Shown: one piece after another, positions 1 to 8,489 of the stretch
Numbering within the stretch: the first letter of the stretch is position 1
Layout of the letters: each line of letters opens with the position of its first letter
DNA from: Deltaproteobacteria bacterium
GTDB taxonomy: Bacteria > Myxococcota_A > Polyangia > JAAYKL01
Assembly (NCBI GenBank): GCA_030595125.1
Contig: JAUVDV010000004.1
Span: 15,907-79,906, forward strand
DNA: 64,000 bases
Reading direction: 5' to 3'
The notes under the pieces: generated by a model
Databases searched by the model: none
What the model was told of the DNA's origin: nothing
Seen by the model: only the letters and a program-made list of their open reading frames with translations
Position numbers and translations under genes: made by a program

Positions 1-300
1 ATTTAAGTTGCGGTCGTCGAACAGCGCTAACCTGTAGCTCCCCTTCGGCAACAAGAAAACCGCCGCCCTGAGCTTGGCATCGACAACTTTAAATGCAGCG
101 ATGGTCTGTTCTCCCTCGCGCTCCTCGTGGGGTTGATACACAACCGCCACCAGCTGCCCCTCGGGTGTGCCGCCCTTCTTAACAAGGACGTGAAGCTGAC
201 GCTGATCCTCCAGCAGGCGCACGTCCGCCTGCATTCGCGCTATAAAACAGGCGCTCACCGTAACTCCGATAATCGCAAATATTGCCGCCGTCTTAAGCAT
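1..300 (-). CDS. Putative lipoprotein, partial (runs off the window edge; not in the ORF track)
   Basis: Manual translation from ATG at 300: MLKTAAIFAIIGVTVSAC-FIARMQADV...LPKGSYRLALFDDRNLN, open for 100 codons to base 1. Hydrophobic signal ends in a VSAC lipobox. The GSYRLALFDD motif loosely resembles DUF2141-type beta domains (from recall). Confidence 0.6.
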   Translation of the reverse strand, partial: MLKTAAIFAIIGVTVSACFIARMQADVRLLEDQRQLHVLVKKGGTPEGQLVAVVYQPHEEREGEQTIAAFKVVDAKLRAAVFLLPKGSYRLALFDDRNLN

Positions 301-437
301 TCTGTGATCTCCCTAAAGCCTCACTACACATAAATTACCACTCGCTGCTGATATCCATTCCGTATACTTCGTAAAATGGCAATAGGGGTCAACACCCATC
401 ACATATCACTTTCCCGGTGTAAATTGAGAACCCAGCA

Positions 438-1985
438 TCAATCTATGCCGTGCCTCGACAGAATCACATGCTGGTGTACCTCCCGCGTATCCACGTATCC
501 ATCGCGTCCCTCCGTGAGCAATATGAGCGCCGGGTAGATATATGACGGATTTTGTTCCACCGCCTCGATAATGTCCCTGACCAGCGGATGATTTCTGGAG
601 ATCCTGTACTCGCTGCGCCCGTCTCCCCTTTTCACCTCGGCCCAGGGACGACGTTGTGCATCGGCCATTCTCACCTTGATTTCAAACGGCCTCGCTTCAC
701 CCGCAAGCGAGAATCCTCCCGAGCGCACCTCTGCCGAAACCGCCTCGAGGAACCTTTCCTCGGACGGCTCCAGATGTGCCGCTCTCACCGGTTTTCCCGG
801 TCCGCCGCGCAGGGCGCGCCCCATTTTCTTTTTCAGATCCCGCAAGCGCGACTTGATGGTGGCGTAGATCCCGAAGCGCCCATATCGGGTAGGCGGGGGG
901 AGAAGCTCTACTCCAATTTCGTCTTCGAGGAACGCCCGCTGCGCAGCATCGATCCGCAGCACCTTGCGTCCCTCCAGGTCATAGCTTTGCAAGGATTCGC
1001 TCGGATGGATGGCAAACAACCGGCCATCGGCCGATTTCCTTGCGACAGCCTCAAGATCGAGGGGCGCTGCGCCCACCATCCGAAATGCGGCCACGTTCTT
1101 CAACAGCTTCTGCTCGCGAGTGTGCTTGTAGCGATCGAACAGGAGTTCGAGGGCCCTGGTTTTTCCCTTATCCCCCAGCTGCGGAAAATGACGCGTCAAC
1201 CTGGCGTAAAGACGACGGGATGCCCTCCGAAGAGTGCTCCAGCTCGCCGAAAAGTCATCGTCTTTTTCGTCGATGATCGCATGGAAAACCATGCCGTTGA
1301 CGGGAGGCCTGACCTTCTCCTCCTCGCGAATTCCGTTCTTCAACTGAACGATTCGGGTGAGATCGCTCTTGTACGGAAGACCTACCGTGCCGTGGAGACG
1401 AGCGTTTCTGATGTCCACATCCAGGAGATGTTGCTCGATTCTCGGCCCGTGGTTGATTCGCTCACCGTTTAGCCTGATAGGGACTATCGAGTACTTGCAG
1501 GCCTCCACAATGAGTCGCTTCTCCAATCTCGGCAAACGCCCCTTGCCCCGAACAACGATGCGGGAATCCTCCTGCTGTGAGGCATCGAAACTCCTGACCC
1601 CCTTGCGCGAAACGAACTCCAGGCCCCTTCCCCTCCCGTCCACCTGGCCGCTGAACTCAACCCTGGCCTTCGACACCGAGAACGCGGCCAACAACCCCAG
1701 GCCATCGTCCTTCTCCAGTTCCACCAGCGCGTTGTGGCGATTCGCGGCAGATCGATCCTCGTCGAAGATGACTATCAGACGCCTCAGGGACGCCATCGAA
1801 AAATCTCTTCCGTCATGGGTCAATTTGAAATGACGTGATGTTGTCTCGATGTCTATCAATAACGGTCGGCAAGACGCCGCGTACTTGATCAGCTCGACCG
1901 CATAGTCACCAACGGTCTTGAAGCGCTGCTGCGCCAACTTGCGGATCTCCGCATCCACATCGATACGCAGAAGATCCCGGATCAT
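438..1985 (-). CDS. Degenerate HSP90/GHKL-like protein (probable pseudo-ATPase)
   Basis: 515 aa. Eroded GHKL boxes: ELIKYAAS (N-box Asn absent), THDGRDFS (G1), DDGLGLLAAF (G2). C-terminal ISRNHPLV resembles the HtpG INPxHPLI motif. ATGA overlap with the upstream gene. Confidence 0.65.
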   Translation of the reverse strand: MIRDLLRIDVDAEIRKLAQQRFKTVGDYAVELIKYAASCRPLLIDIETTSRHFKLTHDGRDFSMASLRRLIVIFDEDRSAANRHNALVELEKDDGLGLLAAFSVSKARVEFSGQVDGRGRGLEFVSRKGVRSFDASQQEDSRIVVRGKGRLPRLEKRLIVEACKYSIVPIRLNGERINHGPRIEQHLLDVDIRNARLHGTVGLPYKSDLTRIVQLKNGIREEEKVRPPVNGMVFHAIIDEKDDDFSASWSTLRRASRRLYARLTRHFPQLGDKGKTRALELLFDRYKHTREQKLLKNVAAFRMVGAAPLDLEAVARKSADGRLFAIHPSESLQSYDLEGRKVLRIDAAQRAFLEDEIGVELLPPPTRYGRFGIYATIKSRLRDLKKKMGRALRGGPGKPVRAAHLEPSEERFLEAVSAEVRSGGFSLAGEARPFEIKVRMADAQRRPWAEVKRGDGRSEYRISRNHPLVRDIIEAVEQNPSYIYPALILLTEGRDGYVDTREVHQHVILSRHGID

Positions 1986-4888
1986 GGTGCAACCCTCAGC
2001 ATGTCCAGGGCGGCTTTCTCGCGAATCGATTCACGCTCCGGTCGCAACAGCTCACTCCTTGCCAGGATCACATCCAGGAGGAGGAAGGCCGCCAGCGCGG
2101 GATCCACGCTCCACAGGGCCGTCCGTCGTCGCACGTCCTCGTCCGTTGGCGAAACCGCGACAAACCAGCGCGGCCAACGGGATCCGGATTCCAACCCCAG
2201 GCCGCGAAGATCAACGTCCCGGCTGATATTGCCCACGAGGCCTCGACAGGCGACCACGGTTCGCTCGGGCATGCCCGCCAGCCCGATGAGACGATCGACC
2301 TCGTCAATCAAATGGCCCGAGCGCTGCAATTCTCTTGGCAGGTCTGTAGCGCGTGTGGGCTTTAGCGCCGCAACCTCGTCCAGATCGACGATCCCGTGCA
2401 ACCGGGAAATGATCTCTCCGAAGGCCGGATCCCGATTTGCCAAAATCCGTGCCTTTCGCTCCGTCGCTCGACGCACCAGTGACGGAGCGCCCGACGAGTG
2501 CCAGAGCCTTCCTTTCCTCCCCAACGATGTCGCCTCGTCAAGGGACATCTTCTTATTCTTGCCCAGCACGGGTAGCAACCGCCGCGATGAAAGGCCGCTC
2601 CCCCGCAACCAAACCTCCGGCTGTACGATCGCGCTGTTCAGCATTTTGGCCGCAATCTTTCTCATGGCCTCCACGCCACCCGGAGCGTTGATTTTTTTTG
2701 CCCCTCTTCCAGCCAGGAGCAACAACAAGGCAATGATTCCCGCGAGACCTGCCACCGTGGCGGCGGCGAGCGCAACTACCCTTGCCCCGGCGTTCCCCGA
2801 ATGACGGCCCCGGTCCCCGGTCATGGTTTTGTCCGGGGTTGGCCCAATTTGTTTCGCGGGGTCGATGGCCGGTGGCGTGCCCGGGTAGGAACCCGTGGCG
2901 TCCGCAGTCACCCAAGTGCCGTCGTGGTACTCGATCCAGGCGTGCATGCCGGATATGGCCTCTCCATTCTCACCGACGATGCCGATGGCAAGACGGGACG
3001 GGACGCCGGCGCGTCGCAGCATAACTATCGCAAGGGTGTTCTTGACGTCACAGTCCCCCCTCGCCAGGGTGGTGACGAATTCAATCCAACCGGACTTCGG
3101 CGAGGACCCGAGGAATTCATTGTAAGCCTGCGCGGTGGTCGTCGAACGATCGTAGGCAATGGTCGGCTGAACGAAACGAGTGATTGCCTCCACTCTGCGG
3201 TCGGTATCGATCGCCGCCGCCGCCCTCGAGGTAATCGCGCTGTACGCCACCGGCAACCTCATCCGTGAAGGGACGCGCAGGAGATCGTTCCACCGGGATG
3301 GATCGAGGGGCTCGGTGCCCGGCCCGGTTCGATAACGGAGCTTCCCCGCCACCAGGCTGGACAGGGACAGCACCGGCTCTCCCTTCCCGGTGATCATAAG
3401 GGGCCTGATCTTTTGGTCGTCCAGCCAGACGCTGTCCGGCTCCACGCGATGCCCGGTGGGCACCGGAATGGCCAGTATCCCCGGCCCCGCGTGAACGCTC
3501 GTCTCCACGTCATAGCACCCGGCGGCGCAGCGATAGGACGGCGCGAGCTTGGCCGGCACCGGCGGCCCCGCGATGATCCCTCTTCCGGCGTCCAGCGACT
3601 CGGCAGTGGCAATCTTGAAGAGCGTATCCTCCGGCGGTGAGTATTTCAGCAACAACCGGGATCCCTTGTAAAGAGGCTCCACCATGGGACCATCGAAACC
3701 GTCGCCCGTATCGAGCGTGGACGCGGCATCCGAGTGGGGCATCAATACCGTCTTCGACGGATCCCCCGACGCGAACGCGTCGGGCGAGGCCTCCGTAACA
3801 ACGGATGTGAGCTCGATGTCCTTGTTCAGAAAGAACCAATACACCGAAAGCGCGCAGGCCAGGGCCAGGACGAGGGTGATGATCAGCGTTCCCACTATGG
3901 GGATCAGGCGACCGCCCAGCCGAAGATCTTCGATGGCCCCGATGAACCAGTCCTTCAGTCTCTCGCTGAACGGTCGCGGCGAGAGACTGTCCAGGTACCT
4001 GCCCACGAGCTCCCGCATCCTCCTGCGGGCGATCCTCCGGACCCGCGCAAGGGCTCGATCGTCCACAACCGCCCTGCGATCCAACGTCACCGAAAGATTG
4101 TTGCCGTTGAGAACATATACCGGCGCGAGCCCCTCCGGATGAGACGCGTCGTCCAGGGATCTGGCGCCGTATCGGAGCTCATCCAGGGTAGTCCCTCGCC
4201 ACACCAGCAGCCCCCGCGCATAGAGTTCGATCTTGGGTCGATGCCCCAGCCCCACTACCCCCTCCACAGATCCGTTCTTGAAAGCCATCCAGCAAGGGCC
4301 GTCAATACTGAACGGCCTGTCGATACGAACACCGTTGAAGTAGACGGGAAGATGGGAAGCATCGGGGTTGTTACGGCGCAGGTACCGGCAATACCTGTTG
4401 AGTGCATTCTCGATGTCGCGAAGCACTCCGGGATCCTCATCGTCATTGATCGTACACTCGAGGCGGATTCGCGTCCCTACGGATCCAATATTCGGCACAA
4501 GTCGCCGATCGCGCTTGAGATCCCCGTCGAAGGCCCGCGCCCAGGCCTCTCCGTCGGCGGTCATGGATTCGATGACGATTCGATGTGGATCGAAGAGGAG
4601 GACTGACCAGAAGCCGACCCCGTACCGACCGGCGCTCCGTGTCTCACCCTCCTTGCTTGATGCATACAGGGTGAACAGGTAGTCCTGAGCGTCGACGAAG
4701 CTCATCCCATCTCCGTCGTCCGCGAATTCGAGCATAAGTTCGTCGCCGTCCATCGAGGCGGTTACGTTGATATTCGTCGCGCCCGCATCTCTAGAGTTTT
4801 GCGCCAGCTCGCGCAGAAAGACCAGGCGGTCTTCCCCGTATCGGAGGCCTTCCTCGAGCGCTCGTGATCGAAAATCGTCAAAATTCAC
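1982..4888 (-). CDS. Membrane-spanning HSP90-like GHKL ATPase fused to a transglutaminase-like (Cys-His-Asp) domain
   Basis: GHKL motifs RELAQNSRDAG, DDGDGM, GRYGVGFWSV, GTRI, plus an HSP90 middle-domain-like loop NLSVTLDRR. TM1 near 3830-3915 and TM2 near 2705-2780. Between them: GDCDVKN...LRRAGVPSRLAIG...HAWIEY...WVTADAT. Start chosen at GTG 4888 (TATCCT lies 6 nt upstream); the ORF track starts at 4906. Confidence 0.85.
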   Translation of the reverse strand: MNFDDFRSRALEEGLRYGEDRLVFLRELAQNSRDAGATNINVTASMDGDELMLEFADDGDGMSFVDAQDYLFTLYASSKEGETRSAGRYGVGFWSVLLFDPHRIVIESMTADGEAWARAFDGDLKRDRRLVPNIGSVGTRIRLECTINDDEDPGVLRDIENALNRYCRYLRRNNPDASHLPVYFNGVRIDRPFSIDGPCWMAFKNGSVEGVVGLGHRPKIELYARGLLVWRGTTLDELRYGARSLDDASHPEGLAPVYVLNGNNLSVTLDRRAVVDDRALARVRRIARRRMRELVGRYLDSLSPRPFSERLKDWFIGAIEDLRLGGRLIPIVGTLIITLVLALACALSVYWFFLNKDIELTSVVTEASPDAFASGDPSKTVLMPHSDAASTLDTGDGFDGPMVEPLYKGSRLLLKYSPPEDTLFKIATAESLDAGRGIIAGPPVPAKLAPSYRCAAGCYDVETSVHAGPGILAIPVPTGHRVEPDSVWLDDQKIRPLMITGKGEPVLSLSSLVAGKLRYRTGPGTEPLDPSRWNDLLRVPSRMRLPVAYSAITSRAAAAIDTDRRVEAITRFVQPTIAYDRSTTTAQAYNEFLGSSPKSGWIEFVTTLARGDCDVKNTLAIVMLRRAGVPSRLAIGIVGENGEAISGMHAWIEYHDGTWVTADATGSYPGTPPAIDPAKQIGPTPDKTMTGDRGRHSGNAGARVVALAAATVAGLAGIIALLLLLAGRGAKKINAPGGVEAMRKIAAKMLNSAIVQPEVWLRGSGLSSRRLLPVLGKNKKMSLDEATSLGRKGRLWHSSGAPSLVRRATERKARILANRDPAFGEIISRLHGIVDLDEVAALKPTRATDLPRELQRSGHLIDEVDRLIGLAGMPERTVVACRGLVGNISRDVDLRGLGLESGSRWPRWFVAVSPTDEDVRRRTALWSVDPALAAFLLLDVILARSELLRPERESIREKAALDMLRVAP

Positions 4889-4944
4889 AATACGAGGATA
4901 CCGCACCCTGAATTACAACGAAAATCCACGTTTCTTTTTATTGC

Positions 4945-6642
4945 TCAATTGCGACGCCTGAATTTTCGCGCGCGGATCATGGACAGCAATACCAGCAACC
5001 CGAACCCGCCCGCCGTGTATACGGCATACTCGGTGAGGTCTTTGCGTCCACAGTGATGAAAGTAGATTCCCGTGGCGCCCGAGGCTATACCGCACAGCGC
5101 GAAGATCAATTGATGGGTGGCGCTGTACAGGAGGTCGGCCGCCGGTGAGATGCCCTCCACCCGAAAACTGATCTTTCCCGCGAGGGAGCGATTGACGACC
5201 TTCTCCAGGAGTGTGGGTAACGACAGAAACGCGAGTATTTTTTCCCTGGTCACGTCGAACAGCATCTCGGACCAGTCGCGATCTTTGCCGAGAACGAACT
5301 CCTCCAGATATGGCCGGATGGTATCGGCCGGGTTCATCTTGGGATCCAGGTGGGTGCACAAGCCGGTGAGAAGTAGTGCTGCCCGCTCCAGCAATACCCA
5401 CTCCCGAGGCATGTGAAACGCGTCCGAGAGCTCTCTCAAACCCACGTTCATCTGCTTGAGGTCGGCAAGCTGCTCCAGTCCCTTGCTGGTGTCGATCTTG
5501 ACAGACGAGAGGGAGAAGCTCTCCAGCCGGATCTCGTCCTGAAATTTGCGATGAAAAAACTCGATAACCCGTGCCGCCGCCTCCGATTGATCCGTTCCGA
5601 CTCTCAGGAACCCCATGTCGCGAATGGATCGAAGGAGTTGCTCCTCGTCGCCCTTGATGATCGCTTCGAGGAATGAGCTGATGCCCTGACGCATGGCGGG
5701 ATCCAGATGTCCAACGGCCCCGAAGTCCAGCAGGACCAGCTTGCCGTCGGCTTGCACCAGCACGTTTCCCGGGTGGGGATCCGCATGATAAAGCCCGTCC
5801 ACGAAAAGCATCTGACAGTAGATCGTCAACAGGTCTTTGGCGATCTCCGACGGATCCAGTCCCTGCCTGGTTAGCTCTTCCACATCCGTGATCTTGGTCC
5901 CGTCAACATACTCCAGGGTGAGCACCCTCGACGTGGAGAGATCCTTGTACACCCTGGTAAAAACCACCTTGTCATTTTCCTCGAAGTTCGCGGCGATGGC
6001 CTCGATGTGCTTGGCTTCCTTCTCGAAATCGAGTTCGTCGAGAATCATCGCCTTTATCTCATGGTAGTAATTGTTCAGACCACGGGTCTTGAAAAAGAAC
6101 CTGATGATACCGAGGATTCGCTTGATGGTCTTGAGGTCGGCCCTCGCCATGGACTCTACGCCGATGTGCTGCACCTTCACCGCCACCCTGTGACCTTCAT
6201 GGGTTGTGGCCTCGTGAACCTGGCCGAGAGATGCGGAGGCTTCGGGCTCCACCTTGAAAGAGGCGAAGACCTCCGAGGGCAAGCCGCCGAGCTCTTCCCT
6301 GATGCGCCGCTCGATCTGGGCGTATGGTCGAGAGGGCACTGAATCCTGCAGGTTCTCCAACCCGGCCCGGAACTCCTCGGGCAGGAAGTTGGTCATTATA
6401 CTGAAAAGCTGGCCCACCTTGATGAACAAGCCCTGCAACTTGAGGATGGTCTCCTCAATTCGCCGCGCATTGCGTCGATGGGCATCCTCTATGCGATCTT
6501 CCCGGTATCGTTCCCCGAAGATCCGGGTCATCATGTTCAGCCACAAATATGAGCCCAACACCAGGAACGTAGTCATATACGCCTTCAGAAAACGAAAGGT
6601 CGCCCTGGTCGGAGCCGATTTGTTTAGATGCGTCCGGTCCAT
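4945..6642 (-). CDS. ABC1/AarF/UbiB-family atypical protein kinase
   Basis: GLFIKVGQLFS, ASASLGQVH, VAVKVQH, ELDFEKEA, HADPHPGN, LLDFGAVG; C-terminal TM hairpin. Confidence 0.93.
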   Translation of the reverse strand: MDRTHLNKSAPTRATFRFLKAYMTTFLVLGSYLWLNMMTRIFGERYREDRIEDAHRRNARRIEETILKLQGLFIKVGQLFSIMTNFLPEEFRAGLENLQDSVPSRPYAQIERRIREELGGLPSEVFASFKVEPEASASLGQVHEATTHEGHRVAVKVQHIGVESMARADLKTIKRILGIIRFFFKTRGLNNYYHEIKAMILDELDFEKEAKHIEAIAANFEENDKVVFTRVYKDLSTSRVLTLEYVDGTKITDVEELTRQGLDPSEIAKDLLTIYCQMLFVDGLYHADPHPGNVLVQADGKLVLLDFGAVGHLDPAMRQGISSFLEAIIKGDEEQLLRSIRDMGFLRVGTDQSEAAARVIEFFHRKFQDEIRLESFSLSSVKIDTSKGLEQLADLKQMNVGLRELSDAFHMPREWVLLERAALLLTGLCTHLDPKMNPADTIRPYLEEFVLGKDRDWSEMLFDVTREKILAFLSLPTLLEKVVNRSLAGKISFRVEGISPAADLLYSATHQLIFALCGIASGATGIYFHHCGRKDLTEYAVYTAGGFGLLVLLSMIRARKFRRRN

Positions 6643-6696: not shown

Positions 6697-7464
6697 CTAA
6701 GGTTGCCTTACGAGAAGCACCGTGATGTTGTCGCTCCCGCCGGCGCGGTTCGCCGCCTCGATCAGCTCGTGGCAAACGACCTGCAAGTCCTGTTGATAAC
6801 GCTGAACGGTATCGAGCATTGTGGCGTCGGATATCTCGCCGTTCAACCCATCCGAACACATCAGAAAAATATCTCCGGGGTTCGGCGTGTCGAAGAAGGT
6901 ATCCACCTTCACCGACTCTTTCATCCCAAGAGCCCTTACGATCACGTTTTTATGCGGGAAGCTCTCGATCTCCTCGGGCGAGAGCTTCTTCATCTTGATG
7001 TAATCGTTGAGCAGTGAATGGTCTTCCGAGAGTTGCTCGATCTCGCCATCTCTTACACGGTAGATCCTGCTGTCTCCCACATGGGCGAGATAGAAGCCCT
7101 CCTCCACGCAATAGATTGCCGTGATGGTAGTGCCCATTCCCTTGTACTTGGTCTTGCGCTTGGCAGCCTCGTGGATACGAAGATTGGCCAGCTTGATCCC
7201 GGTGATCAGGCGGTTCTCCTCGTACCTCCGCGACCTGTCCATCTTGTACGGCCAGGTGAGCTCCGGATCTTCCCTCGTTTCTTTGTAAAAAGTCTTGAGA
7301 GTCTCCACGGCCATCTGGCTCGCCACTTCCCCGGAGGCATGACCTCCCATGCCGTCACACACGATGAACAAGTTCTCGCTCTCGACTATCGAAAACGTAT
7401 CCTCGTTATGATTGCGCTTCATCCCGACATTCGTCTCGCCGGCTACCTGCACTGGAATCTTCAC
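6697..7464 (-). CDS. pph1: PP2C/PPM-family Ser/Thr phosphatase, Pph1-like
   Basis: VGMKRNHNED, VCDGMGGHASGEVAS, HVGDSRIY, SDGL, GGSDNIT. The segment TWPYKMDRSRRYEENRLITGIKLAN matches my recollection of myxobacterial Pph1. Confidence 0.85.
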   Translation of the reverse strand: MKIPVQVAGETNVGMKRNHNEDTFSIVESENLFIVCDGMGGHASGEVASQMAVETLKTFYKETREDPELTWPYKMDRSRRYEENRLITGIKLANLRIHEAAKRKTKYKGMGTTITAIYCVEEGFYLAHVGDSRIYRVRDGEIEQLSEDHSLLNDYIKMKKLSPEEIESFPHKNVIVRALGMKESVKVDTFFDTPNPGDIFLMCSDGLNGEISDATMLDTVQRYQQDLQVVCHELIEAANRAGGSDNITVLLVRQP

Positions 7465-7484: not shown

Positions 7485-8489
7485 CTACTGCCCGGGCGCC
7501 GGCGCAGGCACCGGGGCCACACCGGGTTGAACCGGGGGCACCGCACCGGGTTGAGTCGGAATCGGAGGCATCGTGGGTCCTGTGGGCATACCAGGAACCG
7601 ACGGTAGGGCTGTCGGCATGCCGGGGACCTGCGGAATTTGCAACTGCTCCATGCCCGACGGCACATTGACATTAAAATCGGATATGGATGGCGTCAGGAA
7701 GAATGCCCAGACCACCCATCCAACCACGGTCATCGTGATCAACGCTCCCACTCCGATGATGATCCAGAGCCACAACTTGCCGCCCTTCTTCACCGGAAGA
7801 CTCATATCGTCCGCCATATCGCCCATTCCATCGGCCAAATCTCCTCCGACGGCATCTGACGCCATGTCACCCGCCAGATCTCCGGCTTCTCCGGCGGCCT
7901 CCGCGAAGCCAGCCGTTTCAGGAACCGCGTCGCCAAGCGCAGGGATGGCCTCTGTGGCAGAGGCCGGTCCAGTGATCGGATCCCCAATAACATCGCCGGC
8001 GCCATCCACGGCCGCCATTCCCAGCATGGTGGCCTTGTAAGCATCGTCACCTGCCGGTTCAGAGGCAGGAGCTTTGCTCGGCGCCTTGTCGTCTGGCGTC
8101 GCCGGTGCTGCGGGTGTCGCCGGTGCTGCAGGCTTCGCCGGTGCTGCGGGCGCGGCCGGCATCGGCATCTTCATGGCCGGCATGCCGAACACTGTTTTAT
8201 TGGCGGCTTGACCACCTGCTGCAGCCGCCTTGGCCATCGGTGCTGCGGCCGGCTTGGCCATCGGTGCTGCGGCCGACTTGGCCATCGGTGCTGCAGCCGA
8301 CTTGGCCATCGGTGCTGCGGCCGGCTTGGCCGGTGTCGCTGCGGCCGGCTTGGCCGGCTCGGGTTTCTTTTCGGTAGATTTCATGGGCATATCTCCGCTG
8401 CTCTTGACGCCAGCCGTTCCACCGGGCGCAACAGGCGCACCTTCAGTCTTGTCCTTTGCCCCGGGAATTCCAAAAACAGTCTTGGCCAT
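7485..8489 (-). CDS. Low-complexity Ala/Pro/Lys-rich single-pass membrane protein
   Basis: 334 aa; AAGGAG SD; AAAPMAKS repeats; motifs KTVFGIP, KTVFGMP, KATMLGM; one TM (LWLWIIIGVGALITMTVVGWVVWAFFL); Pro-rich C-terminal tail. Confidence 0.8.
   Translation of the reverse strand: MAKTVFGIPGAKDKTEGAPVAPGGTAGVKSSGDMPMKSTEKKPEPAKPAAATPAKPAAAPMAKSAAAPMAKSAAAPMAKPAAAPMAKAAAAGGQAANKTVFGMPAMKMPMPAAPAAPAKPAAPATPAAPATPDDKAPSKAPASEPAGDDAYKATMLGMAAVDGAGDVIGDPITGPASATEAIPALGDAVPETAGFAEAAGEAGDLAGDMASDAVGGDLADGMGDMADDMSLPVKKGGKLWLWIIIGVGALITMTVVGWVVWAFFLTPSISDFNVNVPSGMEQLQIPQVPGMPTALPSVPGMPTGPTMPPIPTQPGAVPPVQPGVAPVPAPAPGQ
8230..8349. repeat. 24-bp coding tandem repeat, 4 near-identical copies plus 1 degenerate
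   Basis: Unit ttggccatcggtgctgc(g/a)gccg(g/a)c at 8230, 8254, 8278, 8302; degenerate copy at 8326. Confidence 0.9.

Follow-up and report, generated by a model that had tools for sequence, protein, structure and literature searches.

A conserved gene pair of sediment bacteria encodes a putative membrane-anchored HSP90-like ATPase with an inserted transglutaminase domain and a predicted pseudo-ATPase partner

The periplasm contains no ATP, and to our knowledge few ways are known to power or control periplasmic reactions from the cytoplasm (TonB/Tol, LapD-LapG, FtsEX-type ABC systems and Lpt/Lol). In LapD-LapG, an inner-membrane protein controls a periplasmic Cys-His-Asp protease of the transglutaminase-like superfamily through its state on the cytoplasmic side, which depends on a nucleotide. 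HSP90 is a dimeric ATP-driven clamp; the known HSP90s are homodimers, and TRAP1 is known to take asymmetric closed states. The gene tgpA is co-transcribed with those for a MoxR-type AAA+ ATPase and a DUF58 protein, so that TgpA too would be a periplasmic transglutaminase teamed with a chaperone-type ATPase; we know of no substrate of TgpA. In Pseudomonas aeruginosa, TgpA (PA2873) is encoded by an essential gene, and its periplasmic domain acts as a transglutaminase in vitro (PMC3507681). LapD-LapG has DvhG/DvhD variants (PMC13090378). Here we analysed a stretch of 64,000 nucleotides from a Deltaproteobacteria bacterium (contig JAUVDV010000004.1; hereafter the window), in which two adjacent genes, A and B, form a two-gene unit that is conserved in sediment bacteria and undescribed. 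The two products may be subunits of a membrane-anchored HSP90-type machine whose ATP cycle is functionally tied to a periplasmic enzyme, a reading that we regard as evenly balanced between right and wrong.

Genes A and B are co-directional, and the stop codon of A shares four nucleotides (ATGA) with the start codon of B, as read directly from the sequence; in each of the six loci for which genes were called, A and B share 4 nt. For A, a GHKL ATPase, a transmembrane (TM) helix, a transglutaminase, a second TM helix and a further soluble domain had been proposed from the letters of the sequence, and this architecture was recovered through Pfam domains, two TM helices and invariant motifs (Table 1). 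HATPase_c_3 matched residues 31-128 (6e-12) and Transglut_core (PF01841) residues 570-670 (1.8e-10), each above the Pfam cut-off. Conservation was assessed by aligning 115 full-length homologues of A, with a 74-member subset used for invariant columns. Within the subset E33, N37, D63, G65, G67, G93, G96, G98, R277, C619, H655 and D669 are invariant, and among the 115 homologues C619, H655, D669, G93, G96, G98 and R277 are conserved at 100%, the remaining GHKL motif residues at 98-99%. In searches covering the literature on the architecture, the Pfam domain pair and membrane HSP90-like proteases, no paper, Pfam family or NCBIfam family was found for this architecture, in agreement with the original prediction that no such protein had been described. 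A HEPN paper that mentions both transglutaminase and HSP90 was set aside; its mentions are unrelated to A and B.

Judged by these motifs, the ATP site of A is intact. Its G2 box, GRYGVGFWS, is of the HSP90 type, and its lid is very short (residues 82-94, with a predicted local distance difference test score, pLDDT, below 50). The HSP90-like nature of the ATPase is supported by the AlphaFold2 model (mean pLDDT 87), for which all of the top 50 Foldseek matches were HSP90-family chains (TRAP1 5tvu, E 1.4e-13), in alignments of 350-415 columns spanning the N-terminal and middle domains of HSP90/TRAP1. When a profile of A was compared with PDB sequences, Hsp83, GRP94 and HtpG matched residues 23-168; the best sequence match was MORC2 (7.5e-7), but over 45 residues only, in the N-box and G1 region. 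MORC/paraMORC ATPases are marked by a GHKL plus S5 module with motifs of their own and, as a rule, domains linked to DNA. An HSP90-like ATPase with an Arg loop had been proposed for A, and of this proposal the fold stands, whereas R277 is only a candidate for the catalytic-loop Arg of HSP90, which touches the gamma-phosphate of ATP, as a profile of residues 140-332 found no HSP90 match among PDB sequences. The Pfam HSP90 model PF00183 found no match in A at E up to 1, and the NCBIfam models for HtpG (NF003555, 21.1 bits against a cut-off of 371) and the HSP90 family (NF010683, 28.9 bits against 455) were far from reached, so that A and B are best placed as a remote, separate family within the HSP90 class. 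The possibility that A is a sensor histidine kinase, in which a HisKA/DHp domain with a phospho-accepting His stands ahead of HATPase_c, was rejected: Pfam found no HisKA, HATPase_c stayed at 22.7 bits under its 26.4 cut-off, the ATPase domain is N-terminal and the fold matches HSP90.

Compared with the described HSP90 family (HtpG, TRAP1, GRP94, Hsp90), A has the same Bergerat domain with ExxxN, DxGxG and a G(Q/R)(F/Y)GVGF(Y/W)S-type G2 box, followed by a middle-domain-like alpha/beta domain. It differs from HSP90 in its very short lid and in being an integral membrane protein with a predicted periplasmic enzyme inserted in the fold, and its partner would be a dedicated pseudo-ATPase from a separate gene.

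By sequence, the ATP-binding core of A lies closest to the NCBIfam 'sacsin N-terminal ATP-binding-like' domain of the sacsin repeat region (8e-11; 42 bits, under the cut-off of 50), and PADLOC gave a weak match to TmtA of Tiamat (5e-8, 29 bits, about 80 of 1486 model positions). These matches would fit a conflict or anti-phage system in which a sacsin/Tiamat-like GHKL ATPase is joined to a peptidase effector. They are, however, limited to the generic ATP-binding core (about 80 residues in the case of TmtA), and sacsin and TmtA are large, soluble proteins without a transglutaminase or TM segments. The neighbours of A and B are varied housekeeping genes rather than defence islands, Pfam found no nucleic-acid-binding domain in either protein, and the predicted effector faces the periplasm, away from the cytoplasmic processes of a phage. 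The tree of A, moreover, broadly tracks taxonomy, which points to mostly vertical inheritance. We consider an anti-phage role very improbable.

The closest solved relative of the loop between the TM helices is the periplasmic domain of P. aeruginosa TgpA (6g49; E 2.3e-6, query residues 491-661). The Cys, His and Asp that had been placed at about 3050, 2943 and 2901 coincide with the codons of the triad in Table 1. With the triad invariant and TgpA as its nearest solved relative, the loop enzyme is likely to be catalytically competent. Like A, TgpA is an inner-membrane protein with a periplasmic Transglut_core and a Cys-His-Asp triad between TM helices. TgpA has five N-terminal TM helices (DUF3488) and no GHKL/HSP90-like domain, whereas in A only one TM helix precedes the loop, Pfam found neither DUF3488 nor DUF4129, and the fused ATPase belongs to another superfamily than MoxR. 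No MoxR or DUF58 gene was seen adjoining A and B.

The inside-out control of LapD-LapG might be the nearest precedent for how A and B work, as an analogy of mechanism. LapG, a soluble BTLCP (PF06035) protease, is a protein of its own that LapD sequesters, whereas the enzyme of A is fused, and LapD signals by binding c-di-GMP where A would rely on a GHKL clamp that hydrolyses ATP. The two systems are unrelated in sequence, as PF06035 (BTLCP/DUF920) found no match in A in the Pfam search.

Both TM segments of A are strongly hydrophobic (Kyte-Doolittle value 2.6) and recur in homologues. Exactly these two segments were found in 71 of the 115 homologues, and most of the others have one extra weak segment; a weak hydrophobic stretch near residue 940 of A is a helix of the folded C-terminal domain. 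Across the 71 two-helix homologues the mean number of Lys and Arg per 15 flanking residues was 3.4 before and 1.7 after TM1, and 1.7 before and 3.9 after TM2. The positive-inside rule, together with a 330-residue ATP-binding part that precedes TM1 and has no signal peptide ahead of it, gives a topology with the N terminus inside, the transglutaminase outside and the C terminus inside. The transglutaminase of A is thus predicted to be periplasmic, and the original placement of this enzyme outside and the ATPase inside the cytoplasm agrees with the prediction. A conserved Cys460/Cys464 pair in the periplasmic loop fits an oxidising compartment.

Gene B found no match in Pfam, NCBIfam or PADLOC, its profile found nothing among PDB sequences, and BLASTP against A gave an E value of 0.18 only; the paralogy of the two proteins is visible only with profiles. 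By hhalign, the N-terminal half of B aligned with A residues 1-330 (98.9% probability, E 1.7e-17, 248 columns) and its C-terminal half (residues 269-515) with the C-terminal domain of A (residues 735-974; 93.8%, E 1.7e-7, 210 columns), while three cross-controls each stayed below 1%. The order of secondary-structure elements is parallel in the two models. B is soluble, and its model (pLDDT 85.6) matched full-length HSP90 chains over 620-680 columns in Foldseek, among them TRAP1 4j0b_B (E 1.1e-17, TMq 0.42-0.49). The fold match of B with HSP90 runs over the whole protomer.

The Bergerat fold is kept in B and the HSP90 motifs are lost. The N-box Asn is replaced by Tyr35 (1881-1883) and the adenine-binding Asp by His57 (1815-1817); the N-box Asn, which binds Mg, is missing in 164 of 165 representatives of B, and at the position of the Asp the same 165 carry Asp in 62, His in 38 and Ala in 36 cases. 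The position aligned with R277 of A is occupied by acidic residues. On these substitutions, the ATP site of B is dead. The original prediction of a translationally coupled paralogue lacking the N-box Asn is therefore upheld by the ATGA overlap, the hhalign matches and the 164 representatives.

As B is paralogous to both cytoplasmic parts of A and its model matches full-length HSP90 chains, it would represent a whole HSP90-like protomer. From this and the paralogy of the two proteins it follows that A would be an HSP90-type protomer with a TM-transglutaminase-TM cassette between its middle-domain-like and C-terminal parts. What is new here, on the profile alignments and models, is that homology links the 'further soluble domain' of A to the C-terminal half of B and that B appears to fold like a complete HSP90 protomer.

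Several features of B were recorded beside this comparison. A single one of the 165 representatives keeps Glu, Asn and Asp at all three ATP-site positions and is perhaps still active, or a quirk of the alignment. The most conserved residues of B lie between residues 9 and 91 (1713-1961): D9, V10, K16 and L17 in the N-terminal strand and helix, and D75, R83, H84 and E91 on the lid-equivalent helix. Their conservation suggests a new function, which could be, for instance, to form an interface to A's ATP site. Residues 368-392 (810-884) form a low-confidence, strongly basic helix with a net charge of +7, YGRFGIYATIKSRLRDLKKKMGRAL, which has no counterpart in the C-terminal domain of A and could be a membrane-association or linker element.

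Homologues of A numbered 481 at E up to 1e-3. Among the 120 listed of these 481, all are one-open-reading-frame (ORF) proteins of the family, 115 are full length (900-1100 aa), and both Pfam domains are present in all but five, which are short or partial. The same insertion point and both cytoplasmic parts were found in every full-length homologue examined, across several phyla. The B profile matched 805 cluster representatives, of which 457 reached an E value of 1e-10 or lower. When species-representative genomes were scanned, 165 contained a relative of A, and the 80 best loci were used for locus comparisons. All 80 come from metagenome-assembled genomes (MAGs), of Myxococcota/Polyangia, Acidobacteriota (Holophagae, Thermoanaerobaculia, Vicinamibacteria), Aminicenantes and a few others. 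In 77 of the 78 fetched loci that extend far enough downstream, A is followed directly by B on the same strand. The pair, for which a synteny search in Myxococcota had been proposed, also occurs in Acidobacteriota and Aminicenantes.

The stretch with A and B was found in 19 metagenome runs, which come from 12 studies of cold seeps and marine sediments. The A/B junction, TM1 and the part from the transglutaminase through TM2 to the C-terminal domain are covered without joints by contigs from independent studies. An assembly or annotation artefact, that is a chimeric ORF or a frameshift-fused gene, is thereby reduced to next to nothing: no point was found in its favour, and the 481 matches, the single ORFs of all 120 listed homologues, the 165 species genomes, the contigs over all junctions and the confident model of A all oppose it. 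A one-off fusion or a misassembly, either of which would have refuted the original prediction, is not what these data show.

How the two proteins might work together was considered in the light of these findings. A and B would pair like the protomers of an HSP90 dimer, and the clamp so formed would be asymmetric, each complex having a single working ATP site and a single periplasmic enzyme. The clamp's ATP cycle would be functionally linked to the periplasmic cysteine enzyme, whose substrates would be envelope proteins or cell-wall components and whose activity would be that of a transamidase, deamidase or protease. Coupling would proceed via positioning or release of the tethered enzyme, or via a shared membrane-spanning client; with tethers so long and floppy, either is likelier than a rigid, piston-like relay.

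Several observations weigh against this reading. In the model both tethers have a pLDDT below 50, and they are rich in Pro, Ala, Ser and Gly and poorly conserved; the distance from the end of TM1 to Y422 varies from 27 to 86 aa across homologues and that from D669 to TM2 from 27 to 119 aa, and the TM helices are themselves poorly conserved (mean top-residue frequency 0.36-0.40). Disordered tethers of variable length argue against rigid allosteric control, and a tight transmission of conformation is hard to reconcile with them. They fit better with an enzyme on a leash, the clamp setting its reach, its release or its access to clients, or with plain co-localisation. The claim of the original prediction that the clamp controls the periplasmic enzyme was pure inference, and the long, disordered, variable tethers on both sides weaken it. 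We infer the A:B heterodimer only from paralogy, gene coupling and the precedent of HSP90. The full-length Foldseek match of B to HSP90 has a root-mean-square deviation of about 20 Å, which means that domain orientations differ between the two, and R277 is at most a candidate for the middle-domain Arg of HSP90. The chemistry of the loop enzyme may be cross-linking, deamidation or proteolysis, as even for TgpA we know of no substrate.

The ATPase and the transglutaminase might merely be co-localised. A and B would then be a membrane-tethered cytoplasmic chaperone or ATPase, with a transglutaminase independent of the ATP cycle and a fusion that fixes stoichiometry and location or a hairpin that serves as an anchor. 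The long, disordered, Pro/Ala-rich tethers of variable length and the poorly conserved TM helices are what this explanation would predict, and the periplasmic domain of TgpA is active alone in vitro (PMC3507681). However, the insertion point and both cytoplasmic parts are kept in all full-length homologues examined from several phyla, the triad and the ATP motifs are both invariant, B is kept in 77 of 78 loci, and an enzyme loop with two tethers would be needless for a mere anchor. We judge co-localisation unlikely, while taking it seriously.

The hairpin is inserted between two parts of the HSP90-like fold that probably move relative to each other in HSP90, and the Pfam search found no cytoplasmic output domain beyond the clamp itself. 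Both points would be compatible with signalling in the opposite direction, where the periplasmic domain binds, or is acylated by, an envelope ligand and regulates the cytoplasmic clamp through the hairpin and thereby its cytoplasmic clients. An invariant catalytic triad suggests turnover rather than sensing, the flexible tethers count equally against this direction, and no conserved gene for a cytoplasmic client or regulator lies near A and B; outside-in sensing is therefore improbable in our view.

The proposed machine, with its ATP cycle tied to the periplasmic enzyme, can be taken one step further. A and B could be the first machine of the HSP90 class that operates across a membrane: an active and a dead subunit, obligately paired, would bind and hydrolyse cytoplasmic ATP so that a tethered periplasmic enzyme of transglutaminase fold is deployed, gated or reeled in. 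The hairpin would sit at a hinge of the HSP90 fold, and the energy of ATP would in this way serve to modify envelope components covalently or to proteolyse them. We put this stronger version forward tentatively and hold it to be doubtful.

Table 1. Features of the A/B locus and of the co-directional genes upstream. Positions are those of the window; residues are those of the protein named.
Feature	Position	Strand	Length or residues	Remarks
Gene A	1982-4906	minus	974 aa	HSP90-like ATPase with inserted TM-transglutaminase-TM cassette (predicted)
A, GHKL (Bergerat) ATP-binding domain	4457-4849	minus	about 20-150	predicted cytoplasmic
A, motif residue codons	E33 4808-4810; N37 4796-4798; D63 4718-4720; G93xxG96xG98 4613-4630	minus		
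A, HSP90 middle-domain-like alpha/beta domain and two helices	3917-4456	minus	151-330	invariant R277 at 4076-4078
A, TM1	3827-3907	minus	334-360	
A, tether 1	3728-3826	minus	361-393	predicted periplasmic; disordered
A, beta-rich domain	3317-3727	minus	394-530	predicted periplasmic; in part aligned to TgpA 6g49
A, transglutaminase core	2891-3316	minus	531-672	
A, triad codons	Cys619 3050-3052; His655 2942-2944; Asp669 2900-2902	minus		Cys619 in GDCD
A, tether 2	2792-2890	minus	673-705	predicted periplasmic; disordered, Pro/Ala-rich
A, TM2	2711-2791	minus	706-732	
A, C-terminal domain	1985-2704	minus	735-974 (240 aa)	predicted cytoplasmic; homologous to B 269-515
Gene B	438-1985	minus	515 aa	soluble full-length HSP90-like pseudo-ATPase (predicted)
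B, N-terminal half	1182-1985	minus		paralogous to A residues 10-305
B, C-terminal half	441-1181	minus		paralogous to A residues 741-967
ABC1/UbiB-type kinase	4945-6642	minus		upstream, co-directional
PP2C phosphatase	6697-7464	minus		upstream, co-directional
Low-complexity Ala/Pro-rich membrane protein	7485-8489	minus		upstream, co-directional

The start of A in Table 1 is the GTG at 4906, the first start past an in-frame TAA, which it directly follows. Within 4886-4906 lies a second GTG, at 4888 (residue 7), which agrees with the N-terminal consensus of the homologues, M-xxxx-FRxRA, and with the 968-aa length of P0004, a protein 97% identical to A. No clear Shine-Dalgarno sequence was found ahead of either GTG, at 4906 or at 4888. 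From the homologue consensus, the true start is likely to be the GTG at 4888, which would correct 4906. In run X20, a marine-sediment data set labelled 'METATRANSCRIPTOMIC ChIP-Seq', contigs fall on both A and B at 95-99% identity (window 300-5100), and one of them spans 4666-4941, over the start of A into intergenic DNA. These contigs are a weak sign of expression and hint at transcription beginning upstream of A, with DNA carry-over as another possible source.

No conserved neighbour other than B was found across about 85 loci, the best cluster being present in 15 loci of one clade. The ABC1 kinase gene adjoins A only in its two closest relatives (L007 and L020; about 95% identity) and in none of about 80 other loci, and is therefore placed outside the conserved module. 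The sole locus with downstream room but without B (L026; 3560-5157) is AT-rich there and carries a small RHH-like ORF followed by a PIN-domain-like ORF, of the VapBC type; this arrangement may be an insertion or a chimeric MAG contig. On one Aminicenantes-type contig (L004; 2767-4493 and 12646-12831) A and B are flanked by a LanC-like gene and several lanthipeptide-leader ORFs near a non-ribosomal peptide synthetase gene, surroundings that are clade-specific and not conserved. Eight MAGs titled Clostridia, Patescibacteria or Chrysiogenia (L039, L044, L047, L048, L059, L061, L072 and L083) fall inside the Aminicenantes clade of the A tree. Their branches to Aminicenantes bins are very short, and they are probably mislabelled or contaminated bins, not transfers.

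The family is widespread, yet restricted to sediment Myxococcota and Acidobacteriota that are uncultured or have been little studied, and it has escaped study because its carriers are of this kind. If the proposed machine is real, the few known ways of powering or controlling periplasmic reactions from the cytoplasm would be joined by one with a different mechanism, in which an HSP90-type clamp connects across the membrane with a cysteine transamidase or protease. Within the HSP90 class, A and B would then be the first member that is integral to a membrane and the first that is an obligate heterodimer, made of an active subunit and a pseudo-enzyme. The pair may also illuminate the transglutaminases of the TgpA type, and it hints at a new link between the use of ATP in the cytoplasm and an enzyme in the periplasm.

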